A stretch of 64,000 bases of DNA, from the IMG/VR virus record IMGVR_UViG_3300037418_001250; one strand, 5' to 3'. The stretch's first letter is position 1, and each line of letters opens with the position of its first letter. The stretch is from an uncultured virus (IMG/VR IMGVR_UViG_3300037418_001250) (lineage: Duplodnaviria > Heunggongvirae > Uroviricota > Caudoviricetes). Below are positions 9,916 through 30,595 of the stretch, piece by piece. The notes beneath the pieces were generated by a model, which had not been told where the DNA came from, did no database searches, and saw only the letters and a list, made by a program, of their open reading frames with translations. The translations under genes and the position numbers were made by a program.

Positions 9916-9933
9916 CCTTTTATGGGGGATGAC

Positions 9934-10689: not shown

Positions 10690-10701
10690 GAGCACTTCAC
10701 G

Positions 10702-10750
10702 ACCCATCGGGCCTCGACGGTCAGGGGTTTAACCCCTAGCCGTCTGAGGA
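10702..10750 (+). promoter_or_regulatory. late-leader RNA element, copy 1 (major capsid)
   Basis: CATCGGGCCTCGACGGTCAGGGG; alternative pairing covers SD GAGG. Confidence 0.65.
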
Positions 10751-10757
10751 CCGCTGC

Positions 10758-12080
10758 ATGTCTATTCAGAACTTCCCCGCCAAGCTGCAGGCCGCTATTC
10801 AGCAGAAATTCCTTGAGCGCGAGTTCAGGGAAGGCCTCGAAAGCACGCTGACGTACCGCAACATCGCGGACGCCGAAATCTTCCCGGCCAACGTCGGTGA
10901 GACGATCACCAAGACCCGCAAGGGCCTCAAGGCGCCGACCACGACGCCGCTCGATCCGACGACCAATACCAACCTCGACAACGGCCTGACGCCAACCGGC
11001 TGGACGATCGAGCAGTACGAGCTTGGCGTCGATATGTACGGCGACACCATCGACCTCAACATGGTGACCCAGGGCGTCGGCATCGCCGATCAGTTCCTCC
11101 ACAACGCCCGCACCAACGGCATCCAGGCGATGCAGTCGGTCGACCGGCTCGCCCGCAACAAGCTCAACGAAGCCTATATGTCGGGCAACACCCGCGTTAC
11201 CGCCACGCTCGGCGCCGCCGGGACGACGATCACGGTCGACGACATTCGCGGCTTCGAGCAGGTCATCGTCAACGGCGTGCTGAAGGACGTCTCGACGGCC
11301 AACACGATGAAGGTCGTCGTCGGCGCCACCGAGTACACGCTGACGGGCGTTGCAGCCGACGGCACCAATTCGTCATCGGTCGCAGCCTTCGGCGGCAAGT
11401 CGGGCAGCCTGACCTTCTCGACCAACGTCTCGATCGCCGACGGCACGTCCGGCAACGCCGTCGTTGCCCACTACGCGCCGACCGTGCTGCGCGTCGGTGC
11501 CCGCTCGACGACCGCCGGCCTGCAGGCGACCGACAAGTTCGGCATGGCCATCGCGCTCGACGCCGTGACCCAGCTCCGCAACAACGCCGTACCCGGCGTC
11601 GGCGGCGGCTTTTACGAGTGCTATCTCGATAACACCTCGGCCCGCCAGCTCTTCGCCGACGACGACTTCAAGCAGCTCTACCGCGGCAAGGGCGCCGCGC
11701 AGGAGTTCCGCGAGGCGCGCGTCATCGAGCTTCTCGACCTCCGGTTCATTCCGACGACGGAAGCCATTCAGCAGAAGATCGGCTCGGTCAATATCCACCG
11801 GCCGCTCATCTGCGGCGCCGGTTGCATGGTCGAGGGCATCTACGACGACACGGCCTATTCCAACCTGCCCGAGGTCGACAACCAGATCATCGACGTCATC
11901 GAAGGCATCGCGATGGTCACCCGCGCGCCGCTCGACCGCTTGGCGCAGATCATCGCGCAGTCCTGGTACTACATCGGCGGCTTCACCTGCCCGACCGACG
12001 TGACGGCCGACCAGACGATCATTCCGACGGCCTCGAACGCCATGTTCAAGCGCGCCGTCATGATCGAGCACGGCGGCTGA
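10758..12080 (+). CDS. major capsid protein
   Basis: 440 aa after scaffold; strong codon bias; followed by terminator. Confidence 0.85.
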   Translation: MSIQNFPAKLQAAIQQKFLEREFREGLESTLTYRNIADAEIFPANVGETITKTRKGLKAPTTTPLDPTTNTNLDNGLTPTGWTIEQYELGVDMYGDTIDLNMVTQGVGIADQFLHNARTNGIQAMQSVDRLARNKLNEAYMSGNTRVTATLGAAGTTITVDDIRGFEQVIVNGVLKDVSTANTMKVVVGATEYTLTGVAADGTNSSSVAAFGGKSGSLTFSTNVSIADGTSGNAVVAHYAPTVLRVGARSTTAGLQATDKFGMAIALDAVTQLRNNAVPGVGGGFYECYLDNTSARQLFADDDFKQLYRGKGAAQEFREARVIELLDLRFIPTTEAIQQKIGSVNIHRPLICGAGCMVEGIYDDTAYSNLPEVDNQIIDVIEGIAMVTRAPLDRLAQIIAQSWYYIGGFTCPTDVTADQTIIPTASNAMFKRAVMIEHGG

Positions 12081-12092
12081 TCGCCGTCCTTC

Positions 12093-12126
12093 GTGAGCTA
12101 CCGGGCAATCCCTGGTAGCTCACTTT
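12093..12126 (+). terminator. rho-independent terminator
   Basis: GTGAGCTACCGGG/CCCTGGTAGCTCAC stem then TTT. Confidence 0.65.
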
Positions 12127-12161
12127 AGGCCCATTTTCATTGAGGTTTTGGAGGCCCCGTC

Positions 12162-12551
12162 GTGGCACCACGCAAGAAAACCGCCGGTCAGGCTGCAGAA
12201 GACCAGACCGATCCGAACATCGCGATCGATCCCGACGTCGAGAACGGCGCCGACGGCATCGATCCCGACGGCGCCGAAGACGAAGAGGCCGAGGAAGACG
12301 AAGCCAGCGTTGATCCAGGCGTCGATCCCCGGCCGATCAGCGAAGTGAACGGCCTGCCGATCGGCGGCCGCCCCCTGCACGATCCGCACCCTGAAACCCC
12401 GGCGAAGGCCGAGATCATTCCGGAGGCGGATTTCAACATTTCCATTCGCGGCGTGTCCTTGCAGTTCCGCGACGGAAAGAGAGCCCACGTCGAACCTGAT
12501 GTGCTCGCAGCCATCAAGGCCGCCGGGGTGCCATACAAGGTTGCGGGCTAA
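12162..12551 (+). CDS. acidic head-region hypothetical protein
   Basis: GGAGG SD, GTG start; position after capsid gene. Confidence 0.65.
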   Translation: MAPRKKTAGQAAEDQTDPNIAIDPDVENGADGIDPDGAEDEEAEEDEASVDPGVDPRPISEVNGLPIGGRPLHDPHPETPAKAEIIPEADFNISIRGVSLQFRDGKRAHVEPDVLAAIKAAGVPYKVAG

Positions 12552-12594
12552 AACCGGCGCCTTGATTTCAGCAAGCAACTAAGGATTGCAGCAC

Positions 12595-12753
12595 ATGGCT
12601 AAACGGCCCGCAAAGAAAGCCTCGAAGGCGAAGACCCGAAAGGCAATGAAGCGTCCGGCGAAGAAAGCCGCCCCCAAGGGGCGCGGCGGCCGCAAGTCGG
12701 CGACCAAGGCCCGCACGACCAACCGCTCGAACAACTCGGGCGACAGCCAGTAA
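12595..12753 (+). CDS. 52-aa histone/protamine-like basic peptide (absent from ORF track)
   Basis: MAKRPAKKASKAKTRKAMKRPAKKAAPKGRGGRKSATKARTTNRSNNSGDSQ; TAAGGA SD; followed by TTCG hairpin 12772-12793. Confidence 0.75.
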   Translation: MAKRPAKKASKAKTRKAMKRPAKKAAPKGRGGRKSATKARTTNRSNNSGDSQ

Positions 12754-12818
12754 GCCTGAGTGACAAGCATGGCCCGCATCTTCGGGTGCGGGCTCCTCCT
12801 TCAACGTGAGCGGGTTTG

Positions 12819-13193
12819 ATGTTTACCGATACCGAGAAAGTGAACATTCGCCGCCACCTCGGCTATCCGTTCTCGGGCAACGCCGCGACGCAGCACTTCG
12901 GCGTCCGCTTCATGCGGGCCTGGGGCGCGCTCGAATACAAATTGAACCACCTCGCCAGCGAAGAAGAGGCGATGGTCCGTTCCTACCTGACGCAATGCGA
13001 TCAGCTTGAAACCGATCTCTACACCGTGCGCGAGAACGCCGATACGGCGCTCGCTGCCGTGTGGACGCGCAACCCCGCCGAATTGGCGGAGCGGGAAGCG
13101 CTTTATACGAAATTCCGCATGAAGCTCGTCGGGCTCTTCGACGTGCCGCCGGGTCCGGCGCTCTGCAACTCAACCACGAGGCGGGTCGTATGA
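12819..13193 (+). CDS. head-tail adaptor (putative)
   Basis: TDTEKVNIRRHLGYP N-terminus; synteny. Confidence 0.65.
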   Translation: MFTDTEKVNIRRHLGYPFSGNAATQHFGVRFMRAWGALEYKLNHLASEEEAMVRSYLTQCDQLETDLYTVRENADTALAAVWTRNPAELAEREALYTKFRMKLVGLFDVPPGPALCNSTTRRVV

Positions 13194-13447
13194 GCGAGAC
13201 CGCCAAGAAAATCTCATTGGCTCCCGAGTTGCCGCCAGCGCAGAGCGCCCTTGAAGTCGCCGCTATGCTTGAGGGGCTGCTAGAGCGAGCGAAGACCGGC
13301 GAAATCGTAGCTCTCGGCGCCGCCTACGTAACCCGGTTCCGGGACGGCGGCTCGATGGTCGCCGGTTCCGTCGAGCGGGTGACGTTGCTCGGCTCCGTTG
13401 CGCACCTGCAGAGCCGTATCATTAAAGCCCTCGATGGTGGCACCTGA
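13190..13447 (+). CDS. hypothetical protein
   Basis: ATGA overlap. Confidence 0.55.
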   Translation: MSETAKKISLAPELPPAQSALEVAAMLEGLLERAKTGEIVALGAAYVTRFRDGGSMVAGSVERVTLLGSVAHLQSRIIKALDGGT

Positions 13448-14103
13448 TGGACGGCGCCACGATCACCGCCCGCATCAACAAAGGTCTCGGCATCGCCGCC
13501 AAGAAGGTCGGCCTTGCCTACGACGTTTATCGTCCGAACGGGCCATTGAACCCGCTCGCGGTGGGAAACAAGATCGCGACCGGCGTCGCCATGACGTTTG
13601 CCCCTTACGGCAACTGGTTTCAGTTCGGCACGCCGTCGCAGCACGGCGACACCTATTACACCGGCCTCTTCGATCCGACCGACTACCGGATCGGCGACTA
13701 TCTCGTCTCGGCGAAAGACACCTATTTCATTCTGTCGCTCGATCATATCGAGCCGCCGCTCGTCGCCCAGGCCTTCCGCACGATGGACTTCTGCCGCCCC
13801 GTCAACGCCACTGACGTCGCTGGTCGCAATCCCCGCTACGGCGGCAACGACGCGGCATCGGAAGAGCACTACATGACGGGCTGGCCGATCTCGCTCAACC
13901 TTGAGCGCAAGCTGGCGCAACCGATGGCCGGATTGCCGGGCGATGCTTCGGCCGCCTCGATGGAATTTCTTCTGCCCTACGCGGGCGTCGAAATCGTCAA
14001 CGCCGACATCGCAATCGACAGCGACGGCAACAGATGGGTCATCGGCGCCGTTGAAAAGTCGCCGCTCGGCTGGCGCATCTACGCCAGAGAGGCGGTGGCC
14101 TAA
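13447..14103 (+). CDS. head closure/neck protein (putative)
   Basis: Synteny; beta-rich. Confidence 0.6.
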   Translation: MDGATITARINKGLGIAAKKVGLAYDVYRPNGPLNPLAVGNKIATGVAMTFAPYGNWFQFGTPSQHGDTYYTGLFDPTDYRIGDYLVSAKDTYFILSLDHIEPPLVAQAFRTMDFCRPVNATDVAGRNPRYGGNDAASEEHYMTGWPISLNLERKLAQPMAGLPGDASAASMEFLLPYAGVEIVNADIAIDSDGNRWVIGAVEKSPLGWRIYAREAVA

Positions 14104-14288
14104 TGGCGGACCAGTCCTACAAGGCCTCCTTCAACCGCGAAGTCATGCGCCGCTACAAGATGGCGGTCTCGAAGACGCCCCGCATGGGCAGCAAGGCCCT
14201 CAAGGCGCGGCGTGCGGCGGCCCGCAAGCAAAAGAGCGCCATGAGCGCCCGCTCGACCAAGAGCGGCGCCAGAGCCGGGGATAGCTGA
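14103..14288 (+). CDS. 61-aa basic peptide ending GDS
   Basis: TAATG coupling; K/R/A/S-rich. Confidence 0.7.
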   Translation: MADQSYKASFNREVMRRYKMAVSKTPRMGSKALKARRAAARKQKSAMSARSTKSGARAGDS

Positions 14289-14289
14289 C

Positions 14290-15171
14290 GTGGCTGATCT
14301 CTCCGACGTCGAAGACGCGCTCGCCGATCTCATCGCGCCGCCGTTCTACCCGAACGGCCCCGACGCCGCGCCCGCCATCGATGCGGCGATGGTCAAAATC
14401 TATCCCGGCTGGCCGCAATCGGACGCGCTCGACAAGGACGTCCGCAAAGAGCGGGTCAACGTCTCGATCTTCGCCAGCAAGGGCGAGAAGAACGTCACGC
14501 GGTACATGCGGGAGTGGCGGGAGCTCTCCCGCAACGATGCGACGCTGACGGCGACCGTCTCCGGCAACACCTTGACCATCGGCGGCACGGTCGCGGTCGA
14601 CCAGAATGTTCACGCCGTCGTCGCTGGTCGGAATTACGTCTACGCGGTCCAGGCTGGCGACACTCTGCAGATGATCGCAGCGGCGCTTGCCGCGCTCATC
14701 AACGTCGACACTCCGGCCTCGGCCGCAGGCAACAGCATCACCGCCGATCATATCAGCGGCGCTTCGATCGGCGTCGTCGGCAAGCTCGCACGGGAAGTCC
14801 GCCGCACCGAAAAGCAGTTCATGGTGACCATCTGGGCGCCGAGCGACGCGCTCCGGGTCGCCGCCGCCAAGCTCATCGATCCGGTCCTTTCGGCGATCTC
14901 TTACCTGCCGCTTAAGGACGGCTCAAAGGGTTTCGTCACCTACGTCCGCTCCGATGACAACGACGATCCGCAGGAAGCTTTGATCTACCGCCGCGACATC
15001 GTTTTCATGGTCGAATACCCGACGCTCGAAATCATCGACGGCACCGAATTTATCGCGGGCGAGATCGCAACCAGCGGCGCGCAGCGCTCCGACATCGTGA
15101 CGCCGCCGCTCAACATTCAAACCGGCGACGTGGGCACCGATGCGCCCGGCTGGCCGGGAGCGGAGTGGTAG
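14290..15171 (+). CDS. tail completion/terminator-like protein (putative)
   Basis: IYPGWP motif; synteny. Confidence 0.6.
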   Translation: MADLSDVEDALADLIAPPFYPNGPDAAPAIDAAMVKIYPGWPQSDALDKDVRKERVNVSIFASKGEKNVTRYMREWRELSRNDATLTATVSGNTLTIGGTVAVDQNVHAVVAGRNYVYAVQAGDTLQMIAAALAALINVDTPASAAGNSITADHISGASIGVVGKLAREVRRTEKQFMVTIWAPSDALRVAAAKLIDPVLSAISYLPLKDGSKGFVTYVRSDDNDDPQEALIYRRDIVFMVEYPTLEIIDGTEFIAGEIATSGAQRSDIVTPPLNIQTGDVGTDAPGWPGAEW

Positions 15172-15172
15172 C

Positions 15173-15733
15173 ATGGCGCTCTTTTTCAGCCGCAACGAGT
15201 TCAAGGTCGTGAGGTTGCCGGAAAAGCCGGTGCCGAACGCCATCTATTTCGTCTTGAAGGCGGGTTACGTCGAAGAGTGGGTGACCGACGTCAAGGGCGT
15301 CGCCTATCAGGTCAAATCCGACGGCGGGGCGGGCAGCGATCCGGGAACCGGCGGCGGCGGCGACTTCACGGTCACGCTCGAGACTTCGGAGACCGTCGTC
15401 GCTGGCCAGCCGCTCCGGGTCAACAGCGGCTCGAAGTTCGAGCTGGCGTCCGCCGCGAGCTTCAACACCGCCCGCACCGCGGGTCTTGCCACCGCCAACA
15501 CCGCCGCGGGCTTTGCCGCCACCGCCGACCGGACGCAGATCACACTTTCCGATTGGACGGCGGTCGCCGGTAGCCAGCTTTTGACACCCGGCGCTACCTA
15601 TTTCCTCGGCGTCGTGCCGGGCACCATTACCAGTATCCCGCCGAACTCGGTCGGGCAGTGCGTGTGCGTCCTGGGCGAAGCCGTCTCGACGACGACGCTC
15701 GCCATTGAAATGTCCGATCCCATTCAGCTCTAA
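15173..15733 (+). CDS. virion fibre/decoration protein, paralogue of next gene
   Basis: Shared W.AV.G...LT.GA.YFL...G..T..P...GQ....G.A.S. Confidence 0.6.
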   Translation: MALFFSRNEFKVVRLPEKPVPNAIYFVLKAGYVEEWVTDVKGVAYQVKSDGGAGSDPGTGGGGDFTVTLETSETVVAGQPLRVNSGSKFELASAASFNTARTAGLATANTAAGFAATADRTQITLSDWTAVAGSQLLTPGATYFLGVVPGTITSIPPNSVGQCVCVLGEAVSTTTLAIEMSDPIQL

Positions 15734-15745
15734 GGAGAAAAATTC

Positions 15746-16231
15746 ATGGCGATCAAGAAACCCCTCGTGCTCGGCACGAACGGCCTGCCGCAGCAGCTCC
15801 AGTCCGGCGACACCATCGCGGTGCCGACGTCGCAGACGAACACGATGGCGATGTCGAACGCCGAAGCCTCGGCGCTTGTCATCGGCACGCCGGTCTACAA
15901 TCAGGCGGCCGGCGCGGTAAAGAAGGCGCAAGCCAACGCCACCGGCACCGCCCGCGTCATGGGGCTCGTTGCCGACGCCTCGATCGCTGCGGCCGCTTCC
16001 GGCGCCATCGCCACCGACGGCGTTCTGACGGCAACGACGACGCAATGGGACGCGGTGACGGGCGAGACCGGCGGCCTGACCTTCGGGGCGATCTATTTCC
16101 TCGATCCGGCCAACGCGGGCAAGCTGACCCGCACCGTGCCCTCGACCGCTGGCCAGCTCGTCGTCAAGGTCGGCATCGCCCTGTCGTCGGTCGACTTCCT
16201 GGTCGAGATCGAGCCTGAAATCCTGCTCTAA
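15746..16231 (+). CDS. virion fibre/decoration protein
   Basis: TAAGGAG SD; paralogy with both neighbours. Confidence 0.65.
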   Translation: MAIKKPLVLGTNGLPQQLQSGDTIAVPTSQTNTMAMSNAEASALVIGTPVYNQAAGAVKKAQANATGTARVMGLVADASIAAAASGAIATDGVLTATTTQWDAVTGETGGLTFGAIYFLDPANAGKLTRTVPSTAGQLVVKVGIALSSVDFLVEIEPEILL

Positions 16232-16241
16232 GGGGTAATCC

Positions 16242-16685
16242 GTGGCTGGTCGCAAACCTATCGTCGTCGGCGCGAGCGGACTGCAGCAACAGTTGCAGTC
16301 CGGCGATAGCTTCGGCGGTGGCAACATTGCCTACTCGGAACAGCACTACTATCCGCTGGCGACCATCGCCGACGCCGCGACGCTCGCCTGGGATGCTTCC
16401 GCCAAGCAGAAGGCCAAGGTGACGCTCGCTGGCAACCGGACGATGGGGGCCGTCCTGAACGCCGTCGAGGGCGCAACCTATCTCTTGTGGGTCATTCAGG
16501 ACGCCACCGGCTCGCGCACGCTGTCATGGACGACGACAGGGGCAGGGTCGTTCGATTTTGGCGCTGCGGGCGCTCCGACGCTGACGACGACGGCTAATAA
16601 GGCCGACCTGTTGCAGTTCGAAGCCGTCACCATCGCCGGGACGTTGAAACTCCGCTTCGTTGGCATCGCCAAGGGGTACGGCTGA
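16242..16685 (+). CDS. fibre adaptor protein
   Basis: N-terminus shared with 15746; QDATGSRTLSW...PTLTTTANKADL fibre motif. Confidence 0.65.
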   Translation: MAGRKPIVVGASGLQQQLQSGDSFGGGNIAYSEQHYYPLATIADAATLAWDASAKQKAKVTLAGNRTMGAVLNAVEGATYLLWVIQDATGSRTLSWTTTGAGSFDFGAAGAPTLTTTANKADLLQFEAVTIAGTLKLRFVGIAKGYG

Positions 16686-17386
16686 TGCTCGCAACCATGC
16701 CCTTCGTCGGCGCTGGCCTTGCTGCGGCGCCCGCTGGCGACCCGACCCTCGTCGGTTGGTGGAAGCTCGACGACGGCGCGGGATCGTTGGCCGCCGACGC
16801 CTCGGGGAACGGCAACAACGGCACGATCACGGGCGCGAGCTGGGTCGCGGGCCATATCGGCGGCGCGCTATCCTTCAACGGCAGCTCGAACGTCGTGTCG
16901 ATGGGCAAGCCCGCGGCGCTCAACCTGACGCACGTCGGCACGATCGCCTGCTGGGTCAAATACGACAACACGACCGCCGCGGGCAGCAGCAAGTGGCCGA
17001 TGATCCTCGGCAACGGCGATTGGGACGCCGACGTCAACGGCTATCTGTTCGCGCTGAACAGCGAAGCGGGCAACGAAGGCCAGGTCATTTTCGAAATCCT
17101 CAACGGCTCGGGCGGCGTTTTCGTCGTCAGCACGGCGAAGTACGGCAACAGCGCTTGGCATCACCTTTGCGGCACCTGGAACGGCAGCGCGCTTACCCTC
17201 TACGTCGACGGCGTTTCTGTCGGCACGACGCCGCAAACGGCCGACGCGGTGTCGGGTGCCAACCCCTTTGTGATCGGCCGCAACGCCGCCGCCGCGGATG
17301 GCTTTTTCGCCGGATCGGTCGACGACGTTCGCGTCTACAACCGGGCGCTCTCGGCGACGGAAGTCGCGGCGCTCGCTGCCATGTAG
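16685..17386 (+). CDS. LamG/concanavalin-A-like lectin domain protein
   Basis: LVGWWKLDDG, WHHLCGTWNG, LYVDG, G.VDDVRVYNRALS. Confidence 0.9.
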   Translation: MLATMPFVGAGLAAAPAGDPTLVGWWKLDDGAGSLAADASGNGNNGTITGASWVAGHIGGALSFNGSSNVVSMGKPAALNLTHVGTIACWVKYDNTTAAGSSKWPMILGNGDWDADVNGYLFALNSEAGNEGQVIFEILNGSGGVFVVSTAKYGNSAWHHLCGTWNGSALTLYVDGVSVGTTPQTADAVSGANPFVIGRNAAAADGFFAGSVDDVRVYNRALSATEVAALAAM

Positions 17387-17397
17387 GAAGGTGAGGA

Positions 17398-17916
17398 ATG
17401 GCAACGCAATACACCTACAACGGCACCGTCCTCGACCCCGGGCAAGCCTTCACGGCGGGCGGCGTCGCCTATCCCGCAAACTGGCTCGAACTCGCGAGCG
17501 ACGATGATCTTGCCGCGCACGACATCATCAAGACCGAGGTCGCCGATCCCGCGCCGACGGCGGACGAAGTCAAGGCGGCGCTGTCCGCCTATGCCGACCG
17601 CAAACAGGCGATGTTGCTCAACGGCGGCGTCACCGTCAATGGCGTACCGGCCGCAACCGACGTCAACGGCCGGGTGAATATCGCCGGTGCCGTATCGCTG
17701 GCGCAGTTGCAGCCCGACATGACCTTCCATTGGGTCAACGACAGCACCATCACACTGACCGCCGACCAGATCATCGCCCTCGGGCAAGCCGTCGGCGTTT
17801 GGGTGCAAGACGTCTACACGGCACTCGGCAACGTGCTCGCGGGCATTGCGGCCGGCACCATCACGACCACCGACGAGATCGACGCCGCCAGTTGGCCGTC
17901 GACAGCGCTTTCATAA
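17398..17916 (+). CDS. fibre assembly protein (DUF4376-like)
   Basis: YPANWL...; GGVTVNG...TD...W...TLTADQ. Confidence 0.6.
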   Translation: MATQYTYNGTVLDPGQAFTAGGVAYPANWLELASDDDLAAHDIIKTEVADPAPTADEVKAALSAYADRKQAMLLNGGVTVNGVPAATDVNGRVNIAGAVSLAQLQPDMTFHWVNDSTITLTADQIIALGQAVGVWVQDVYTALGNVLAGIAAGTITTTDEIDAASWPSTALS

Positions 17917-17930
17917 AAGGAGACCGACCG

Positions 17931-18095
17931 ATGCCACTCAATCTGATCGTCAAGGAGCCCTTCGACGGCTACGGCAAGGGAGCGAAGATCGCGGAAGCCG
18001 CGGCGGTTACGGCCGCGCTCAAAGACCATCCCGAAAAGGTGCTTCGCATCGAAGCGAAAGAGGCGCCGCGCCCGAAGTCAACCCCGAAGGCCTAG
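17931..18095 (+). CDS. small protein preceding tail sheath
   Basis: AAGGAG SD; LIVKEPFDGYGKG. Confidence 0.6.
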   Translation: MPLNLIVKEPFDGYGKGAKIAEAAAVTAALKDHPEKVLRIEAKEAPRPKSTPKA

Positions 18096-18142
18096 CCGCC
18101 GCGCAGCAAATCAGCTTAAAAAGTTAGAAGAGCAATCTTTCT

Positions 18143-18200
18143 GCTCATCGGGCCTAGACGGTCATGGGGCACTTCCAGAGGGAAACCCCCATGCCGATCT
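18143..18200 (+). promoter_or_regulatory. late-leader RNA element, copy 2 (tail sheath)
   Basis: CATCGGGCCTAGACGGTCATGGGG; CATGGGG pairs with CCCCATG containing the start codon. Confidence 0.65.
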
Positions 18201-19732
18201 TTCAATACGGTCAGCTCAACACGACCGCGCTCGTCGTTGCTGACGTTTACGTCCAGATCGTTCCGCCGCAGTTCCTTCTGAACGGCGTCCCTTCCAATAT
18301 CGCGGGCTACGTCGGCACCGCCTCGTGGGGGCCGGTCAACTCGCCCGAGATCGTCGGCTCGCCTGCCGAATACGGCGCCAAGTTCGGGCCGCCGCAGTTG
18401 CGCAATTACGACCTCGGCACCTACGCCATGATCGCCTTCCAGCAAAACGCTGCGGCGCTCAAGATGGTCCGCGTCACCGACGGCACGGATGCCGCCGCGA
18501 GCATCGAAGCGGTGACGGGCTGCATCACTTTCACCTCGAAATACACCGGCTCCTACGGCAACCAGACCAAGGTGACGATCGGCCCCGGCTCCAAGGCCAA
18601 TTCGTTTCTTGTTCGGGTGCAGATGCCGGGCGTCATTCCCGAGGTCTTCGACAACGTCGCCGCCGGGTTGACGGGGGCCGCGGCTTGGGCGGCGATTGCC
18701 AACGCCATCAACACCGGCATCCCGAATATCCGCTCCGGCTCAAACCTCATCATCGCGACGGCCGATGACGGCACCACAGCGGTCGGCAACGGCAGCTACC
18801 AGCTCGCGGGCGGCACCGACGGCGTCACGACCATCACCGCTTCGGTCATGCTCGGCACCGACACACTGCCCCGCACCGGCATGTACGCGCTCCGCGATCA
18901 GGACGTCTCGATCCTGACGCTCTGCGATATGACCGATCCGACGACGGTCGCGACGATGGACGCCTTCGCGCAGCAGCAGGCGCTCTACGGCATCTACGCC
19001 GGTCCCGCCGGGCAATCGATCTCGGACGCCAAGACCGCCAAGACGACGGCGGCCATCGATAGCGCCTGGACGAAATGGCTGATCGGCGATTGGGCCTACT
19101 GGAACGACAGCTACAACGGCGTGACGCAGCGGCTCGTTTCCCCCGCCGCCTTCGCCGCTGGCAAGCTCGCGGCCTTGGCGCCGCAGTATTCGCTTCTGAA
19201 CCAGCGGGTCAACGGCGTCGTCGGTTCGCAGAAGTCCAATAGCGGCGTTCCTTATACCTCGGGCGACCTGCAGGAGTTGGCGCTCGCCGGTATCGACGTC
19301 ATGTGCGCTCCGGCGCCGGGCGGCAACTACTTCGCCTTCCGCAACGGCCACAACTCATCGTCAAACGGGTCGATCCACGGCGACAACTACACCCGGATGA
19401 CCAACTACATCGCTCAGACCTTGAACAAGGGCATGGGCATCTACATCGGCCGGCTGCAATCCTCGCACGCCAACGACGACACGCGGCGGCAGGCCAAGAT
19501 CACGCTCGACGCCTTCATGACGGCGATGCAGCAGCAGAACCAGATCGACGACTTCAAAGTCGTTCTCGATCTCTCGAACAACTCGCTGCAGCGCATCGCG
19601 CAAGGCTACATGCAGGCCGACGTGCAGGTCAGATACCTCGCCGTCGTCGAGTTCTTCCTCATCAACCTGCAGGGCGGCCAGTCGGTCGAGATCACCCGCA
19701 CCAACACCGTGCCCCAGGCGGTCGCGGCTTAG
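18191..19732 (+). CDS. tail sheath protein
   Basis: PSNIAGYVGTASWGPVN; KYTGSYGN; LAGGTDG; C-terminal NN...IAQG.MQADV. Confidence 0.9.
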   Translation: MPIFQYGQLNTTALVVADVYVQIVPPQFLLNGVPSNIAGYVGTASWGPVNSPEIVGSPAEYGAKFGPPQLRNYDLGTYAMIAFQQNAAALKMVRVTDGTDAAASIEAVTGCITFTSKYTGSYGNQTKVTIGPGSKANSFLVRVQMPGVIPEVFDNVAAGLTGAAAWAAIANAINTGIPNIRSGSNLIIATADDGTTAVGNGSYQLAGGTDGVTTITASVMLGTDTLPRTGMYALRDQDVSILTLCDMTDPTTVATMDAFAQQQALYGIYAGPAGQSISDAKTAKTTAAIDSAWTKWLIGDWAYWNDSYNGVTQRLVSPAAFAAGKLAALAPQYSLLNQRVNGVVGSQKSNSGVPYTSGDLQELALAGIDVMCAPAPGGNYFAFRNGHNSSSNGSIHGDNYTRMTNYIAQTLNKGMGIYIGRLQSSHANDDTRRQAKITLDAFMTAMQQQNQIDDFKVVLDLSNNSLQRIAQGYMQADVQVRYLAVVEFFLINLQGGQSVEITRTNTVPQAVAA

Positions 19733-19779
19733 TCGCGACTTCCCTTCCGCAGCCATTCTTTTTTTGAGGGACTAAGACA

Positions 19780-20226
19780 ATGGGTATCGACACCGGCTTC
19801 GGCCCGCTGACCATCGGCAAGGACGTTTCCGCTGACATCGTTCTCCCGAGCGGCCAAGTTCTCCGGCTCGGCAACATCACCGGCTTCGACAGGAAGCCAA
19901 TGTCGACCGACGTCAACTCCAAGGGCATCGATGGCGTCAACCGCTTCGGCAACATTCCGGACGGCTGGGACTTGTCCTTCAACGCCGACCGGGAAGACAG
20001 CTCGGCTGATGATTACTACGCCCAGGTCGAGGCCGATTACTACGCGGGCAAGGTCATCAAGAACGTGACCGTCTACGAGACCATCACCGAGGTCAACGGC
20101 TCGATCACGCAGTACCGCTACGAGGGCTGCTCGCTGAAATACACCGACGCGGGCTCGTTTGAAGCCGACAAGGTCGTCAAGACCAAGTGGACCGGCAAGG
20201 CCGCGCGCCGCACCAAGATTGCGTAA
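19780..20226 (+). CDS. tail tube protein
   Basis: 148 aa directly after sheath. Confidence 0.8.
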   Translation: MGIDTGFGPLTIGKDVSADIVLPSGQVLRLGNITGFDRKPMSTDVNSKGIDGVNRFGNIPDGWDLSFNADREDSSADDYYAQVEADYYAGKVIKNVTVYETITEVNGSITQYRYEGCSLKYTDAGSFEADKVVKTKWTGKAARRTKIA

Positions 20227-20252
20227 AGAGGCGTCTAACAAAGAGGCAGGAC

Positions 20253-20815: not shown

Positions 20816-20824
20816 GAGCGAGCC

Positions 20825-21244
20825 ATGAGCATGAGCCCCGGCGCATTCGGCGCAAAGCTGATGCTCATGGCAAAGGAAATCGCCAGCGCTCCGACCGGCA
20901 TGGACAAGGCGGCGAGCATTCTGCAGGATCGCGCCAAGCAGGTCATCGGGACTTACGATCTCGGCTGGCCAGCGCTTGCCGCTTCGACGTTAGCGAAGAA
21001 GGGCGCCGATACGCCGCTCTTAGAAACCGGCGGCTTGCGCGACAGCATTCAGAAGACCGTCGAGCCCTTTGTCGCGCATGTCGGGACCGACGATCCCGTC
21101 GGTAGGTATCAGGAACTCGGAACCGACAAAATCCCGCCGCGCTCTTTCATTCGCGCGTCCGCGGTCGAGAAAGAAAAAGAGATCGTCGAGGCGATGCTGT
21201 TGCCGGTCTCGATCACCTTCGGCGAAAAGCCGAAGATCACCTAA
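20825..21244 (+). CDS. HK97 gp10/virion morphogenesis-like protein
   Basis: W.ALAAST...PLLETGGLRDSI...QELGT.KIPPRSF. Confidence 0.75.
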   Translation: MSMSPGAFGAKLMLMAKEIASAPTGMDKAASILQDRAKQVIGTYDLGWPALAASTLAKKGADTPLLETGGLRDSIQKTVEPFVAHVGTDDPVGRYQELGTDKIPPRSFIRASAVEKEKEIVEAMLLPVSITFGEKPKIT

Positions 21245-21452
21245 TCAGGATGAACACCGTCAGCGCGGCGGTGAAGCTCACGATAAAGAGCAGCAAGTAA
21301 ACGGTCAGCCGCCACGCGCCGTGCGCCAGCCGCGGCAGCGCGTAGGCGACGTTTTCGGCCGCCGAAAATCTGACGTCCTCCGGCATTTTCCAATGCTCGT
21401 CGCGAGGATCGAACACCGCTTCTGAAAATTTGAACCGACGTTTGGGGCTCAT
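21237..21452 (-). CDS. small membrane protein, antisense to late operon (moron-like)
   Basis: Fills the 220-bp gap; C-terminal hydrophobic helix. Confidence 0.45.
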   Translation of the reverse strand: MSPKRRFKFSEAVFDPRDEHWKMPEDVRFSAAENVAYALPRLAHGAWRLTVYLLLFIVSFTAALTVFILIR

Positions 21453-21466
21453 GGGAGGGCTTTCCA

Positions 21467-23533: not shown

Positions 23534-23553
23534 TTGTACCGGGGAGAAGAAAG

Positions 23554-23883
23554 ATGAAATTCCGCATGATCGCCGCCTTGCTCGCTTTGTCGGGCTCGGC
23601 GGCGCTCGCTGACGACGTAAAACCAACGCTGAAAACCACGACCCTCGGCTGCCTCGCCAAGGATGACATGACCCGCTTCGTGCGTATCCTCGTCGATAAC
23701 GATCAGGTGGCGGCCAAGAAGCTGCTCGTCGAGCTGATGCTTGACGGCCGCTGCCGCCTTTTCGATCCTGGCACCGAGGTCAACATCACCGACACGGCGG
23801 TTTTTTCCGGCATCATCGACGTCAGGCCGCAAGGCGAAGTTGACAGCTATTGGGTCGACATGGGGCACGTCAAAATGCACTAG
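23554..23883 (+). CDS. secreted/periplasmic protein (moron-like)
   Basis: Signal peptide MKFRMIAALLALSGSAALA; Cys pair. Confidence 0.65.
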   Translation: MKFRMIAALLALSGSAALADDVKPTLKTTTLGCLAKDDMTRFVRILVDNDQVAAKKLLVELMLDGRCRLFDPGTEVNITDTAVFSGIIDVRPQGEVDSYWVDMGHVKMH

Positions 23884-23946
23884 CGGTTGACGCTCGCACC
23901 CGAAACAGCCGATAGATGAAGGGCGCGCAGGTGGAGCGCGCCTTTC

Positions 23947-23997
23947 GCCCAGCGGATCAAGACGGTCATGGGGCTCTTTTCAGGGGCCTGACCGTCC
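23947..23997 (+). promoter_or_regulatory. late-leader RNA element, copy 3 (baseplate genes)
   Basis: CCCAGCGGATCAAGACGGTCATGGGG; GACGGTCA pairs with TGACCGTC next to the GTG start. Confidence 0.6.
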
Positions 23998-24435
23998 GTG
24001 GCGGATTTCAATCTCATTCTCGGGCCGATCGTCTTCAGGGACTTCGAAATCCCCTCGAAGATCAATTTCGGCACCGAACAAGCCCACCACATTCACAAGC
24101 TCATCGGCGGCAGCCGGGTCATCGACAAGCTCGGCCCCGATCCAAGGCCGATCCATTGGGAGGGCCGGTTTCGCGGCGCCCAGGCCGAAGGCCGTGCCCG
24201 CTCCTGCGAGCGGCTGTGCAACTCCGGTGCCGAAGTGCCGGTCAGGTACGGCGGCTATACCTATTCCGTCATCGTCTCGCACTTTGAGGCCGACTACGAG
24301 CGGTTCTACGAAATCCCCTACAAGATCGCGCTGACGGTTTCCGGCGTTGGCGGCATCGGCGGCTTTGTTGCCAGCATCGGCAGCCTCATCGCCGCCGACA
24401 TGGGCTCGATTGCAGCTCTGGGGGCGGCGCTATGA
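23998..24435 (+). CDS. tail tube initiator/baseplate protein (P2 GpU-like)
   Basis: LILGPIVF..FEIP...HKLIGG.RVID.LG; synteny. Confidence 0.65.
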   Translation: MADFNLILGPIVFRDFEIPSKINFGTEQAHHIHKLIGGSRVIDKLGPDPRPIHWEGRFRGAQAEGRARSCERLCNSGAEVPVRYGGYTYSVIVSHFEADYERFYEIPYKIALTVSGVGGIGGFVASIGSLIAADMGSIAALGAAL

Positions 24436-24773
24436 CCGTCTACACCGGCGACATCAAAGCGGCGATCGGTTTCCTCGCAGCGCAAATCGCTGCGACGCCC
24501 GACTTCGATCAGCTTTCGGCAACCGACAAGGCGACGCTGCAACTCGCGGCGCAGCAGCTTCAAGACCGTCTTTCCGGCGCCATCGCGGCGCTCGACGCCG
24601 ACACCGCGCCGGGCGGCCTCTCCGGCCCGCCGCTGGCGCCCTCCGGCGCCTTTCCGCTTGATACCGCAGCGGCGCTTCTGGCCGCCATCGCCAACTCGGA
24701 ACAGCAGGCGACGCTCATCGCGCTCAAAGGCTTTACCGGCCGGCTACAGCTCAATCTTGGAGCCGCCGGATGA
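24432..24773 (+). CDS. baseplate-region hypothetical protein
   Basis: ATGA coupling. Confidence 0.55.
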   Translation: MTVYTGDIKAAIGFLAAQIAATPDFDQLSATDKATLQLAAQQLQDRLSGAIAALDADTAPGGLSGPPLAPSGAFPLDTAAALLAAIANSEQQATLIALKGFTGRLQLNLGAAG

Positions 24774-24988
24774 CGAACCCCGTCCTCATCACCGCCAAGC
24801 GGCTGAAAACCGTCACCGTCCCCGGCGGCACGCTGTTTGCGGTTGCGGCGCAGGAACTCGGCGACGCCTTGCAGTGGACCCGGATCGCCAAGCTCAACGG
24901 CCTCTCCGATCCCTATTTGCCGTCCGCCATGACGCTCAAAATCCCCGCCCTCGATCGCAACTACGACGATGGGGGTATCCTTGGCTAG
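24770..24988 (+). CDS. LysM-domain tail protein
   Basis: GGTLFAVAAQELGDALQWTRIAKLNGLSDP...LKIP. Confidence 0.8.
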   Translation: MTNPVLITAKRLKTVTVPGGTLFAVAAQELGDALQWTRIAKLNGLSDPYLPSAMTLKIPALDRNYDDGGILG

Positions 24989-26120
24989 CCGCAACATTCT
25001 CGCCGCCATTCAGGTCGGAGCGAAAACCGCGATTTGCGAAAGTCTCGAGGTCTCGCTGTCCAAGCAGCAGAACTCCGATAGCTGTCACGCCGAGCTGCCG
25101 CTCAACGCCATCGACGGTTTCGGTCAGGCAATCGATCTCGCCTTCTGGGATAGCCTGACGTCGGACAGCGAACTCGTCGCCGTCTTCGACGGCGTGCCGG
25201 TCTTCTGGGGCTCACCCGATAACGTCGCCGTCGATTTTGCGGCGGGTATCATCAGCGTCTCCGGCCGCGACAAGTCAAAAGGCCCGATCGAAAAGAAATC
25301 AACCGAGAGCTTCAAGAACAAAACCCGCGCGCAAGTGGTGCAGGAAATCGCCGGCCGCCACGGTCTTGAATTTGTCGGCACCGGCTCGATGGACAAGGCC
25401 GGTAAGCAGCAGCAGATCGACTGGAACCACATCACCGACGAGGTGTCGGACTGGTCGACCGTGCAGCGGCTCGCCGACGAGGACGGCAAGGTCGCCTTCG
25501 TATCGAACGGCAAGCTCTTCTACAGCGATCCCGACGACACGACGACCGGCGTGCTGCCGCTCTTCTACGTGCCGCAAACGGCGGCGAGCGCGGCGCAATC
25601 GAATTTCCTGTCCTGCACCATCCACCGCAATTTGCAGGCTGGACGGCCGCATCAGGTCAACGTCCATTCGCACCACACCAAGAAAAACGAGACCTACCAC
25701 GAGCGCGCCAACGTCGGCGGCAACGGCGCCATTCTGACCTACGACTATGAGCACGCCGAGCTGCAGAAGGGGCAGGGTCAGAAGATCGCGCAAAAGCGGC
25801 TCAGGGAGCACGTTCGCCACGAGCTGACGGTCGATTGCGATATTGTCGGCAATCCGCTCGTGCTGCCGACGTGGCAACTGGCGCTGACGGGCTTTGGTCC
25901 CTGGTCGCAGAGCTATTTCATCGACGAGGTGCATCACCGCGCCCGCCGCGACTTCACGACTTCAATCACCGCCCGCAATACCAAGAAGGGGCGTGGCGGC
26001 GCGGGCGGCGGCGGAGGTGGAGGTGGCGGAAGCGGTGACGCGGGAGGCGGCGCGGCGTCGGTTGGCGGCGATCAGTTCAACTTCTCGGAAAACGGCGCGA
26101 TCAATTCGGGGAGGAACTGA
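24969..26120 (+). CDS. baseplate hub (late control D-like)
   Basis: ISVSGRD...IAGRHGL...SDW...RLA; synteny; Gly-rich tail. Confidence 0.75.
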   Translation: MGVSLASRNILAAIQVGAKTAICESLEVSLSKQQNSDSCHAELPLNAIDGFGQAIDLAFWDSLTSDSELVAVFDGVPVFWGSPDNVAVDFAAGIISVSGRDKSKGPIEKKSTESFKNKTRAQVVQEIAGRHGLEFVGTGSMDKAGKQQQIDWNHITDEVSDWSTVQRLADEDGKVAFVSNGKLFYSDPDDTTTGVLPLFYVPQTAASAAQSNFLSCTIHRNLQAGRPHQVNVHSHHTKKNETYHERANVGGNGAILTYDYEHAELQKGQGQKIAQKRLREHVRHELTVDCDIVGNPLVLPTWQLALTGFGPWSQSYFIDEVHHRARRDFTTSITARNTKKGRGGAGGGGGGGGGSGDAGGGAASVGGDQFNFSENGAINSGRN

Positions 26121-26557
26121 TGAGAAACATCGAGCACCTCCTCAACGTCGTCAGGCGCGAAGTCTACCGGGTTATGCAGACCTATTCGCACGGCAAGATC
26201 GCCGAAGTGACGAGCTACGATCCCAAAACCCACATGGCGAAGGTGAAGTTCAAGCCGCGCGACAACGAGAGCGGCTGGCTGCCCATTCAAACGCATCACG
26301 TCGGCGACGGCTTCGGCGTTCTCGTCGGGCTTTCCAAGGGCGACATCGTCAAGGTCGAGCCGCACAACGGCGACCCGAACGCCATGCAGATCACCACCCG
26401 CTACCATCACGACAAGGCCAAGCCGCCGAAGGTCGAGAGCGGCGAAATGCTGATGAAAGACAAGAACGGCACGACGATCTTTTTCGATAAGGACGGCAAC
26501 CTTCACATCAAGTCGAAGGGTAACGTCTTCATCAACGGCTCGGGGAGTACGCCCTGA
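26120..26557 (+). CDS. baseplate spike (gpV-like)
   Basis: VTSYDP...AKV...ESGWLP. Confidence 0.8.
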   Translation: MRNIEHLLNVVRREVYRVMQTYSHGKIAEVTSYDPKTHMAKVKFKPRDNESGWLPIQTHHVGDGFGVLVGLSKGDIVKVEPHNGDPNAMQITTRYHHDKAKPPKVESGEMLMKDKNGTTIFFDKDGNLHIKSKGNVFINGSGSTP

Positions 26558-26814
26558 TGCCGCTCGTCATTCGCCTCGGCGACACTTCCGATCATGGCGG
26601 CCAAGTCATCACCTCGGCGTCGCGGACCTATTACAACGACAAGCTCGTCGCGCGGATCGGCGACATTCTCGATTGCCCGCTGCACGGCCCCAATCCGATC
26701 GTCGAGGGCTCGGCGAAGCAGGTCGTCGAAGACAGCCCCGTCGCCCGCGAGGGCGACCATGCCGCGTGCGGCGCGGCGCTCATCCACGGCCAAGCAACGT
26801 CGGAGGATAGCTGA
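26557..26814 (+). CDS. PAAR-domain spike tip
   Basis: RLGDTSDHGG...ARIGD..CPLHG...AREGD..CGA. Confidence 0.9.
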   Translation: MPLVIRLGDTSDHGGQVITSASRTYYNDKLVARIGDILDCPLHGPNPIVEGSAKQVVEDSPVAREGDHAACGAALIHGQATSEDS

Positions 26815-28336: not shown

Positions 28337-29046
28337 TTGGCGATCAACAAGACGTCTTGCGGCGACAGAGGGCGACCCTCGGGTCGGGCTGGTTTCCCGA
28401 CCAGTCGCCGGTCCTCGATGCCGTGCTGTCCGGCTTCTCGCTCGTCGGCTCGCAGGCTCATTCCCTGCTTATGTACGTGCGTCAGCAGGGCCGCATCAAA
28501 ACGGCGTCCGATGGTTTTCTCGACCTCATCGCCTTTGATTTCTTCGGGCTTCGGGTCAAGCGCCGCAACGGCCAGGGCGACGATCAATTGCGGGCGACGA
28601 TCATCGCCGAGATTTTCCGCGACCGGGTGACCCGCACCGGCATTCAAAAGGCCGTCGGCGACCTCACCGGCTTCGACGTCCGCATGTTCGAGCCCTTCAA
28701 CGCAAGAGACACCGGCGGCTTCAACACGCCCTATCTCGGCTGGAATTGCCTCGGCCGCTGGGGCTCGCTGATGCTGCCGCGGCAGATCTTTATCGCGACG
28801 CTCAACCCGCGCGGCGCCGGTATTCCAAACGTCGGTGGCTTCAATGACGGTCACGGCGGTTGGGATAAGGCGCCCGGCATGTGGGGCTCGCCGACGCTCA
28901 TCAAGGGCGCCGTCACGCAGGCCGACGTCTACGACGTCATTAACGCGACGCGGGCGATGGGCGTCACGCCTTGGGTATCGATCGGCTATCCGCCGGAAGC
29001 TCGCCTCGACGATGATTTCATCCTCGACCAATCGCTCTTGGAGTAG
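28333..29046 (+). CDS. baseplate wedge (gpI-like)
   Basis: TASDGFLDLIA.DFFG...R..G..D..LR; follows J. Confidence 0.7.
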   Translation: MIGDQQDVLRRQRATLGSGWFPDQSPVLDAVLSGFSLVGSQAHSLLMYVRQQGRIKTASDGFLDLIAFDFFGLRVKRRNGQGDDQLRATIIAEIFRDRVTRTGIQKAVGDLTGFDVRMFEPFNARDTGGFNTPYLGWNCLGRWGSLMLPRQIFIATLNPRGAGIPNVGGFNDGHGGWDKAPGMWGSPTLIKGAVTQADVYDVINATRAMGVTPWVSIGYPPEARLDDDFILDQSLLE

Positions 29047-29049
29047 GCC

Positions 29050-30054
29050 ATGACCGCACAATTCAGCTCCAAGCAAATCCTGACCGCGCTCATGCTGAAC
29101 GCGGCTTTCAACGCCAAGGTCGACGCCTCCATCGGCGCGGCGATGCAGGCGGCGATTACGCGCCTCGAAAACTTGGGTGCGCAAAATTACCTCGGCCTCT
29201 GGGACGCCTCGACGAACACGCCGCCGCTCGCCTCCGGCGTCGGCACCAACGGCGACACCTACACGGTCTCCGTTGCAGGCGCGACGGAACTCGACGGCGT
29301 CGCGAGCTGGGGCGTTGGCGACAAGGTGACCTTCAACGGCGGCCTCGGCGTTTGGCAGCGGACCCCGAATATCGCCAACAGCGTTTCTTCCGTTGCGGGC
29401 CTGACCAGCGTCGTCACGGCGGCAGATTTGATCGCGGCGCTCGAGTTGACGATCGATGACATCACCGACGCGACAATCGTCGGCCAAGGTCTCGTCAGGG
29501 CCGCGACCGCCGCGGCGGCGCTCTCTGTGCTCGGCGCGGGCTCGGCGGCAACCAAAGCCGCTGGCACGAAGAAGAACAACGTCCTGCTGCTCGCCGACGA
29601 CGACAAGTTGCCGCCGCTCGACGGCTCGGCGCTGACCGGCATCAACGTGCCCGTCATCTCGGTCGCCGGCCGCACCGGCGCCGTGACGCTTGCAAAGGCC
29701 GACGTCGGCCTCGCCAACGTCGACAACACCTCGGACGCCAATAAGCCCGTTTCAACGGCGCAACAGACGGCGCTCAACGCCAAACTCGCAACTGCAGGTC
29801 TTGGTGCGGCCCTCGCCGCGCTCGGCCTCGGCGGCGTCGGGAGCTTTGCCTACCTGGCACTGTCGACGACCGGCGGCAGCATCGTCGCCGGGCAAACCTA
29901 CCCCGGCTCCGATCTTCTCTACGCTGGCATCTTGGGCACGAGCAACGCCTGCCTTCTGGCGACCAACGGCGCGCCTCCGGGGACGTGGCGGAGCATGGGC
30001 TATTGCAGTGCCACGACCTACCGCTGCTCAACGCTCTTTCAAAGGATCGCCTAG
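29050..30054 (+). CDS. tail fibre protein
   Basis: SVAGRTGAVTL.KADVGL.NVDNTSDANKPVSTAQQ motif; PGTWRSMG tip. Confidence 0.8.
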   Translation: MTAQFSSKQILTALMLNAAFNAKVDASIGAAMQAAITRLENLGAQNYLGLWDASTNTPPLASGVGTNGDTYTVSVAGATELDGVASWGVGDKVTFNGGLGVWQRTPNIANSVSSVAGLTSVVTAADLIAALELTIDDITDATIVGQGLVRAATAAAALSVLGAGSAATKAAGTKKNNVLLLADDDKLPPLDGSALTGINVPVISVAGRTGAVTLAKADVGLANVDNTSDANKPVSTAQQTALNAKLATAGLGAALAALGLGGVGSFAYLALSTTGGSIVAGQTYPGSDLLYAGILGTSNACLLATNGAPPGTWRSMGYCSATTYRCSTLFQRIA

Positions 30055-30537
30055 ATGATCGATGGTCCAAACATTCCCATCCGCAACGTCCGCTACAACG
30101 CCCACGGCAGCATCGATTGTGAAATCGAGATCGTCGAAAACGAGTGGATACCCTTTACGGCGACACTCAATGACGTCGAGCCGCATTCGGCGCAGATTTA
30201 CCAGCGGGCGCTCGCCATGCAGCCGGTCGCTTACGTCGCGCCGACGCCGGTCGAGGGTGACTATCAGATCGCCGTCCAATCGCTGATCGATGCGACGGCG
30301 GCGGCACGCAATTACACCGACGGTAATTCGTGCGTTTCCTATGTCGGCGACACCGTCAACCCGCAATGGGCAGCGGAAGCGGCTTGGTTCAAGGACTGGC
30401 GCAGCCAAGTCTGGGCCTACGTCTTCGCGCAGCTCGCGCTCGTCACGTCGGGGCAGCGGACGCAGCCGACCGTTGCCGCGCTCATCAGTGAAATCACCGC
30501 CAAATTTCCGATCAACTGGCCGCAGTCGGCAGGTTGA
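30055..30537 (+). CDS. tail fibre assembly chaperone
   Basis: IDCEI...WIPFTA..ND.E; D..A..R.Y......SY...W. Confidence 0.7.
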   Translation: MIDGPNIPIRNVRYNAHGSIDCEIEIVENEWIPFTATLNDVEPHSAQIYQRALAMQPVAYVAPTPVEGDYQIAVQSLIDATAAARNYTDGNSCVSYVGDTVNPQWAAEAAWFKDWRSQVWAYVFAQLALVTSGQRTQPTVAALISEITAKFPINWPQSAG

Positions 30538-30595
30538 TCCAGACGGACACTCGTCACGCCGCGTTCATGGCGATCCGAAATTCTGAGGGGACGTT

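Follow-up and report, generated by a model that had tools for sequence, protein, structure and literature searches.

A covarying hairpin in the leaders of a tailed-phage capsid gene family, with a proposed role as a two-state translational switch

Several known systems control translation through RNA structures that compete with each other. In the Com/mom system of phage Mu, an inhibitory stem keeps the start region closed, and binding to a hairpin just upstream opens it. In hok/sok-type mRNAs, one strand has two alternative conserved partners, and the long-range fold that governs translation competes with a less stable local hairpin formed earlier. Translational riboswitches and related leader platforms carry a Shine-Dalgarno (SD)-like strand, an anti-SD strand and the real SD in series, in mutually exclusive folds. 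Here we describe a hairpin element found in IMG/VR record IMGVR_UViG_3300037418_001250, a 64,000-nt stretch of DNA from an uncultured virus of the Caudoviricetes (hereafter the window, meaning this stretch at its full length). It stands upstream of the major capsid, tail sheath and first baseplate-module genes, and belongs to a new, previously uncatalogued family of cis-regulatory RNAs that is tied to one phage capsid gene family.

Its mechanistic parallels are Com/mom, hok-type folds and riboswitch platforms, but the element is a member of none of them. As in mom, the hairpin adjoins and, in silico for the three window leaders, competes with a stem that sequesters the SD and start codon. However, no Com-like protein was found here, the genes that would be regulated encode virion structural proteins, the sequence and shape differ, and the element is conserved across many phages without a conserved partner protein. 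It differs from hok/sok in that no toxin is involved, no antisense RNA or 3' processing is known, and the element takes up only ~30 nt of an intercistronic leader. Compared with riboswitches, it has no known aptamer or ligand, and the hairpin is far smaller than most aptamers.

An earlier reading made from the DNA letters alone (the sequence-only reading) knew of no named element like this one, and Rfam 15 bears this out, with no window match at the gathering threshold. Relaxed Rfam searches returned only sub-threshold chance matches to microRNA and TLS-PK6 models for positions 10640–10780, and one unrelated sub-threshold match for the leaders of six relatives. The element was not described in the full-text literature searched. 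A 2023 catalogue of structured-RNA candidates from viruses places candidates upstream of a different capsid family (PMC10690425). The part of its supplements that was searched holds no DUF4043 or gp56 entry, and the motif could be among the unnamed candidates of that catalogue.

A hairpin family tied to a capsid gene

Using a covariance model, R1, built from 28 related sequences, we searched the whole window on both strands with filters off. Exactly three strong matches were obtained (31–35 bits, E 9e-8 to 1e-6; Table 1), while the runner-up scored 12.7 bits (E 0.24). A 23-nt consensus pattern matched the window twice, vs. 0.00 expected from 100 shuffles, and a chance origin of the three copies is excluded. 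The sequence-only reading had proposed a motif shared by the capsid, sheath and baseplate leaders, and its sequence and coordinates agree with ours. It had also proposed a weaker fourth copy before the fibre gene, at position 30536. We reject that copy, as it is absent from the 21 R1 matches up to E = 10, lacks the CG bulge described below, and has a fold z-score of only -0.44 against shuffles.

In copies 1 to 3, the bulge lies 49, 42 and 45 nt from the start codon, respectively. For the sheath gene, we take ATG 18191 as the start rather than the motif-internal ATG 18164, since the N-termini of the sheath proteins of the window and of a related locus, L008, align from 18191. The internal AUG of copy 2 is in frame with the sheath gene, and that of copy 3 opens a 7-codon mini-ORF (open reading frame; 23968–23991) whose UGA lies 6 nt before GTG 23998. 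A conserved upstream ORF was considered and rejected, as an AUG is found at columns 25–27 in just 16 of 56 distinct copies. The scaffold stop codon sits in the loop of a small 5-bp hairpin (10672–10689), 12 nt 5' of copy 1. In relatives without the extra GC-rich hairpin that precedes copy 3 (Table 1), the upstream stop codon lies ~10–20 nt before the motif.

Table 1. Features of the window, and motif copies in related phages
Feature	Position	Strand	Context and match
Motif copy 1	10699..10733 (core 10702-10728)	+	In the 68-nt gap between scaffold stop 10689 and capsid ATG 10758; R1 34.7 bits, E 9e-8
Motif copy 2	18140..18174 (core 18143-18169)	+	5' of tail sheath ATG 18191; R1 34.6 bits
Motif copy 3	23944..23978 (core 23947-23973)	+	5' of baseplate-module gene 1, GTG 23998; R1 31.0 bits
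Closed hairpin, capsid leader (predicted)	10712..10749	+	Built from motif loop and 3' half; 3' strand carries SD GAGG 10746-10749
GC-rich hairpin	23922..23942	+	7-bp arms, 7-nt loop; directly 5' of copy 3; read from the sequence
Claimed fourth copy, rejected	30536..30549	+	No model match up to E = 10; fold z -0.44
Scaffolding protein gene	9904..10689	+	PF06810, 1.4e-16; PHROG scaffold; upstream neighbour of copy 1
Major capsid protein gene	10758..12080	+	PHROG 1357; DUF4043 / N4-gp56 family by names of source homologues
Tail sheath gene	18191..19732	+	PHROG 23, 1.4e-44
Baseplate-module gene 1	23998..24435	+	PHROG 21362, function unknown
PAAR spike-tip protein	26557-26814	+	
Tyrosine integrase	38634-39881	-	
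GcrA-like regulator	48290-48943	+	
DnaN-like sliding clamp	190-1578	-	
Motif in Ralstonia phage Raharianne (complete, 46 kb)	14131-14165		1 copy, before major head gene gp27
Motif in G004 (CheckV 100%) and G005 (CheckV 91%)			1 copy each, before capsid gene
Motif in G002 (66-kb contig of L008; capsid 66% identical)			3 copies: capsid, sheath, homologue of window 23998
Motif in L070 (partial contig)			2 copies: capsid and baseplate-module gene

The consensus hairpin has an outer stem of 4–6 bp, a U9–A25 pair, a 2-nt bulge (C10 G11), a 4-bp inner stem (columns 12–15 with 21–24) and the pentaloop NNGRC. In the 28-sequence alignment, A8, C10, G11, G18, C20 and A25 are invariant. Across the same sequences, 87.7% of the cells are paired, vs. 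71.6% in shuffles (none of 500 as high), and seven of nine pairs vary on both sides; when the partners are slid, pairing drops to 29–52%. The inner stem contains no unpaired cells at all, and each of the two pairs nearest the loop shows 12 double-sided changes. An alignment of 78 matches (56 distinct rows) gives the same picture of covariation. As the seed regular expression required pairing, a control search used the unpaired letters alone: all four inner pairs were found in 35 of 122 plus-strand matches, vs. one of 63 minus-strand matches. G.U cells outnumber A.C cells (26 vs. 10). Copies within a single phage also carry different, compensated stems, as in the tandem pair of L053, in L036 and in the three copies of L008, and a dimeric DNA-binding site is therefore disfavoured. 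Since both stems covary, the copies lie on the gene strand, and G.U exceeds A.C, we read the element as RNA, and consider it very probably a structured one. This agrees with the earlier proposal of an RNA hairpin.

How widely the hairpin occurs was assessed in two ways. In the first, 80 IMG/VR loci were gathered on capsid homology alone, and the 100 nt upstream of each capsid start were read. R1 gave 30 strong matches (E <= 1.3e-5), all on the gene strand, and just four weak ones (E 0.034–0.84); no intermediate-scoring variants were seen among these capsid-selected loci. In the second, all 2.9 million IMG/VR contigs were scanned blind with the commonest stem variant as a query, yielding 53 copies in 52 loci. 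A capsid homologue (E <= 1.6e-47) follows within 43–87 nt in 51 of the 53; the other two are the first member of a tandem pair and a copy in a locus with a miscalled start. Single copies in the blind-scan loci have the start codon 43–60 nt after the bulge and the hairpin end 20–35 nt before the start. R1 run over 72 sources returned 78 matches, including duplicates from overlapping loci, which reduce to 56 distinct rows. The sequence-only reading had called for a covariance-model search of related phages. Overall, the same hairpin lies 43–87 nt upstream of capsid homologues in over 50 contigs of IMG/VR, and Ralstonia phage Raharianne has it as well.

The element always precedes the major capsid gene of this family and, in the lineage of the window, the sheath gene and the first baseplate gene as well. 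The three-site arrangement is common to the window and L008, and orthologues of copy 3 precede the homologous gene in L008 and L070. Most relatives have a single copy, before the capsid gene. The element is thus primarily a capsid-family leader, and its repetition across an operon, as first proposed, holds for the window/L008 lineage specifically. Tandem pairs before the capsid gene are found in L053 (6037–6103), L036 (9901–9967) and L118, with stems that differ yet are compensated. On a quick capsid tree of 56 rows, from which near-duplicate loci and capsid translations shorter than 380 amino acids were left out, the motif falls in several deep clades, requiring at least five changes, three of them forced by well-supported branches.

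Searching IMG/VR with the pattern of the window variant gave 69 loci, ten of which pass R1 at E <= 0.01; seven of these ten are the window's own record or known relatives. Among loci from this search, L191 has a weak partial R1 match, and L178 and L199 were set aside as chance or unrelated, having no similarity to the 88 window proteins downstream. A scan of genome contigs with the capsid protein alone gave one partial locus, L001, which was uninformative.

Not all relatives carry the motif. In L010–L030, L027, L038, L055 and L065 its place is taken by a canonical terminator-like GC hairpin, whose U run adjoins the capsid SD. A promoter would not fit in between, and these phages must therefore rely on read-through or processing at this point. 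Phage phiKX1 has no motif copy and a different capsid leader. This third leader type consists of a double hairpin with CUGAUG loops and a downstream segment complementary to the first hairpin (L087 19920–19990, which is phiKX1, as well as L034, L050, L059, L068, L071 and L076), and from its sequence it may be an analogous switch.

Such relatives bear on whether the element could act at the level of transcription, either as a DNA promoter for late genes or as a put/nut-like RNA that modifies the polymerase for terminator read-through. All copies are indeed oriented with the genes and stand at the start of modules, and the terminator-like hairpins at the same position in relatives mean that read-through is needed there. 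By eye, a sigma-70-like TTGACG-N18-GATAGA can be found at 23887–23916, 5' of the GC-rich hairpin and copy 3, although a consensus scan did not list it. That scan gave neither a promoter-like nor a terminator-like site on the plus strand at any of the three motifs, the sole plus-strand promoter-like site in 9500–25000 being at 23663–23690. Stems that are compensated within one phage and an excess of G.U pairs are also unlike promoter hexamers, and an antitermination element needs no fixed distance from a start codon. Pfam and PHROG scans of the window ORFs detected no phage RNA polymerase, sigma factor or N/Q-like protein. The loop, NNGRC with invariant G18 and C20, is not GNRA-like as in nut boxB (boxA was not searched for), and intrinsic terminators differ in that no U run follows the closed hairpins predicted below. 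A transcription-level role is therefore very unlikely in our view. A sigma-54 promoter was considered and dropped, judging by the spacing of the conserved G and C positions.

Predicted competing folds over the initiation region

The element would act in cis, as a structured RNA in the 5' leader of a virion-gene mRNA with two mutually exclusive folds. In the motif fold, the purine-rich, SD-like 5' strand of the inner stem would pair with the pyrimidine-rich, anti-SD-like 3' strand, leaving the real SD and the start codon free. In the closed fold, which is longer and more stable, the motif loop and the 3' inner and outer strands would instead pair with the SD and start region, blocking initiation. 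An SD-like strand, an anti-SD-like strand and the real SD would thus follow each other in series, the layout of an anti-anti-SD switch. The motif fold would form first during transcription and, on its own, is predicted to collapse quickly into the closed fold. Because of this predicted collapse, we infer a trans-acting ligand, which would read the invariant bulge and loop, capture the motif fold and keep translation on.

Folded alone, the three window motifs form the hairpin at -11.2 to -11.6 kcal/mol (-11.6 kcal/mol for copy 1). In the context of the leaders, other structures are predicted. The minimum-energy fold of the capsid leader (10699–10766) has -35.4 kcal/mol (z -4.87, none of 200 shuffles as low), that of the sheath leader -23.5 kcal/mol (z -1.79), and that of the baseplate leader -30.2 kcal/mol (z -2.36). 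Enforcing the motif in the capsid leader gave -16.3 vs. -32.4 kcal/mol. Across the family, the minimum-energy fold lacks the inner stem of the motif in 23 of 25 leaders, and enforcing the motif costs 2.4–19.1 kcal/mol. In the closed folds, the motif loop and 3' half pair with the SD and start region, and the three pairings named in the sequence-only reading (10712–29 with 10731–49, 18163–69 with 18187–93, and 23961–68 with 23989–96) are all present in the minimum-energy folds. For all three window leaders, the motif fold and the closed fold are predicted to be mutually exclusive. As the closed fold is far more stable than the motif fold, "off unless the hairpin is held" is a reasonable reading.

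Two controls concern whether the complementarity is specific to each leader. When the 3' half of the motif was paired with ribosome-binding sites (-25 to +9), its own site gave a mean of -15.8 kcal/mol, vs. -13.2 kcal/mol for the sites of other leaders, and none of 20,000 permutations was as low. The loop and 3' half are thus complementary to the initiation region of their own gene in particular, as had been claimed. In a dinucleotide-shuffle control, the native upstream sequence raised the cost of opening -14 to +3 (mean z 1.95), with z > 0 in 40 of 43 leaders. The order of folding was followed with growing prefixes of the leader, in which the motif stays the best fold until 40–52 nt have been made. 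Findpath barriers are 7.5–9.2 kcal/mol from the motif to the closed fold and 16–25 kcal/mol in reverse. With such barriers, a bare motif would survive for no more than ~1 s, and the closed fold, once formed, would practically never reopen.

The closed folds are also what an element for mRNA processing or stability might look like. Here a host endoribonuclease such as RNase III or RNase E would cut at the closed hairpin or the motif and so part the terminase, portal and scaffold message from that of the capsid; hairpins at the new ends would set different half-lives, and the SD may be freed as well. RNase III sites consist of roughly two turns of helix, mostly paired, and the closed folds are predicted to be irregular helices of ~17–22 bp. 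A GC hairpin similar to that at 23922–23942 often lies directly 5' of the motif, in many relatives as in the window, as would be expected for a protected 3' end beside a protected 5' end. Related phages have a terminator-like hairpin at the position of the motif, and a host enzyme as the factor fits the lack of a conserved phage-specific protein. RNase III-dependent leaders such as those of lambda N and the T7 early mRNAs similarly have a long helix that sequesters the SD, and intercistronic hairpins within a long phage transcript. Their difference from the present case is that the conserved unit here is a short hairpin with invariant unpaired letters. Covariation backs this short hairpin and not only the long helix, generic RNase III or RNase E substrates need no invariant bulge or loop letters, and the narrow start-codon spacing (43–60 nt from the bulge), together with the cognate SD complementarity, points to initiation rather than cleavage alone. 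We regard processing as an unlikely, though not a negligible, explanation.

Several points also weigh against the two-state translational switch itself. The energies are nearest-neighbour predictions made for leaders with assumed 5' ends. Composition accounts for some of the complementarity, because an anti-SD-like strand pairs with any SD, and the 5' half of the motif is only weakly cognate for the ribosome-binding site (1,069 of 20,000 permutations as low). Excess occlusion of the start is frequent but not universal: z exceeds 1.64 in 19 of 43 leaders, and is zero or below in L091, L093 and L101. The invariant letters were partly favoured by the way in which the seeds were collected (a regular expression and a fixed pattern). 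Nor is it obvious what a phage would gain by keeping the protein that it needs in the largest amounts strongly switched off by default. Lastly, every protein shared among motif-bearing phages also occurs in relatives without the motif, and no candidate ligand emerged from the comparison described below. The motif, its covariation, its strand, its link to the capsid gene and the cognate complementarity are observed, and from there we infer an effect on translation, its direction, and the existence and possible identity of a ligand; taking both sides together, we hold the chances of a two-state translational switch to be about even. The default-off, mutually exclusive behaviour first proposed finds support in silico in a closed fold that is much more stable, and is qualified by occlusion that is not found in every leader.

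Candidates for what reads the hairpin

The invariant letters of the bulge and loop suggest, from sequence conservation, that something specific reads the hairpin. Short hairpins with a conserved bulge and loop a few base pairs apart, a design read by proteins, are known from the coat-protein operators of MS2 and PP7 and from HIV TAR. In MS2 and PP7, the hairpin holds the start codon and binding represses, whereas here the start codon lies outside the hairpin. Other recognition and catalytic motifs were considered. A hammerhead or other small ribozyme core and guanidine-II-type ACGR loops were dropped, as the loop letters before the G vary; CsrA GGA sites are absent in most copies; and a bulge-loop pseudoknot is sterically impossible across a 4-bp stem.

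To look for a protein partner, homologues of the 88 window ORFs were sought in Raharianne, G002, G004 and G005, four further genomes that carry the motif. Morphogenesis proteins alone are common to the window and all four: TerL, portal, scaffold, capsid, sheath, tube, hub, baseplate J and the fibre N-terminus, along with ORFs 12816, 13447, 14290, 20825, 23998, 24770, 26120, 26814 and 28333. The phage trans factors favoured in the sequence-only reading fared poorly: none of the four genomes encodes a homologue of ORFs 54174–54974 and 54971–55153, of their neighbours or of the small basic ORFs. Pfam gave no match to a Com-like or other RNA-binding family among the 88 window ORFs (E <= 1e-3), and PHROGs gave no RNA-binding or Q/N-like family in 18 and 65 window ORFs, both scans covering ORFs of at least 45 amino acids. 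A dedicated conserved phage activator is thus unlikely. Since no such protein is conserved with the motif, the ligand is more likely a conserved host component or a shared morphogenesis protein (scaffold or capsid) than the factors first proposed. Of those, the scaffold protein is conserved and is a possible factor. The earlier reading was largely right on structure, but wrong on the fourth copy and on the trans factors it proposed.

If the ligand is given a name, the switch becomes, as a special case, an autoregulatory operator: the hairpin would be bound by a morphogenesis protein, most plausibly scaffold or capsid, and the translation of capsid (here also of sheath and baseplate) would follow the supply of subunits not yet assembled. 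The motif is inherited with the capsid family across otherwise unrelated genomes that share morphogenesis proteins alone, it recurs in several deep clades of the capsid tree, and a bulge, a 4-bp stem and a conserved loop are typical of hairpins recognized by proteins. Physical linkage alone, however, accounts for the co-inheritance of a gene and its leader, and the same proteins are present in relatives that lack the motif. Pfam and PHROG searches detected no RNA-binding domain in the scaffold or capsid proteins. Moreover, if binding stabilized the open fold, the feedback would be positive and not negative. An operator of this kind seems to us quite unlikely.

In its broadest form, the two-state switch would make the hairpin the sensor of a widespread, undescribed circuit of tailed double-stranded DNA phages. 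A conserved ligand would bind the bulge and loop co-transcriptionally and set the output of capsid and, in some lineages, also of sheath and baseplate. Candidates for that ligand would include a morphogenesis protein (scaffold or capsid subunit), a component of host translation or RNA decay, or even a small molecule. We offer this as a speculative and rather improbable extension.

Phage context and biological meaning

Its gene content marks the window as all or most of the genome of a temperate, myovirus-like phage. Its morphogenesis genes encode terminase, portal, scaffold, capsid, sheath, tube, tape measure, hub, PAAR, baseplate J and fibre proteins, and its other genes include an integrase, RecT, a primase-helicase, SSB, and GcrA-like and DnaN-like proteins; the GcrA-like regulator suggests an alphaproteobacterial host. 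The ORF at 5993–6658 (+), directly upstream of the large terminase gene, has its PHROG match (5e-18) in a family labelled "Rnase E", along with weak helix-turn-helix/sigma-r4 Pfam matches; judged by its position, it is more likely the small terminase subunit. An IMG/VR fragment, G001, is identical to the window over 601 nt. Among GenBank phages, DNA similarity to the window is limited to one chance-like match of 95 nt, while seven records were matched by protein.

Little is known about how tailed phages set the unequal amounts of capsid, sheath and baseplate proteins from long late transcripts. The element described here has stayed with a single family of capsid genes although the phage genomes around it differ widely. 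Small, sharply defined and easily mutated, it provides a handle on how virion stoichiometry is controlled after transcription. Provided that there is a ligand, the hairpin would form a compact translation switch that responds to a protein or other ligand, and synthetic biology might find a use for it. Should the hairpin be the sensor of a wider circuit, the stoichiometry of virion proteins would be coupled, at the level of translation, to the state of assembly or to the physiology of the host.

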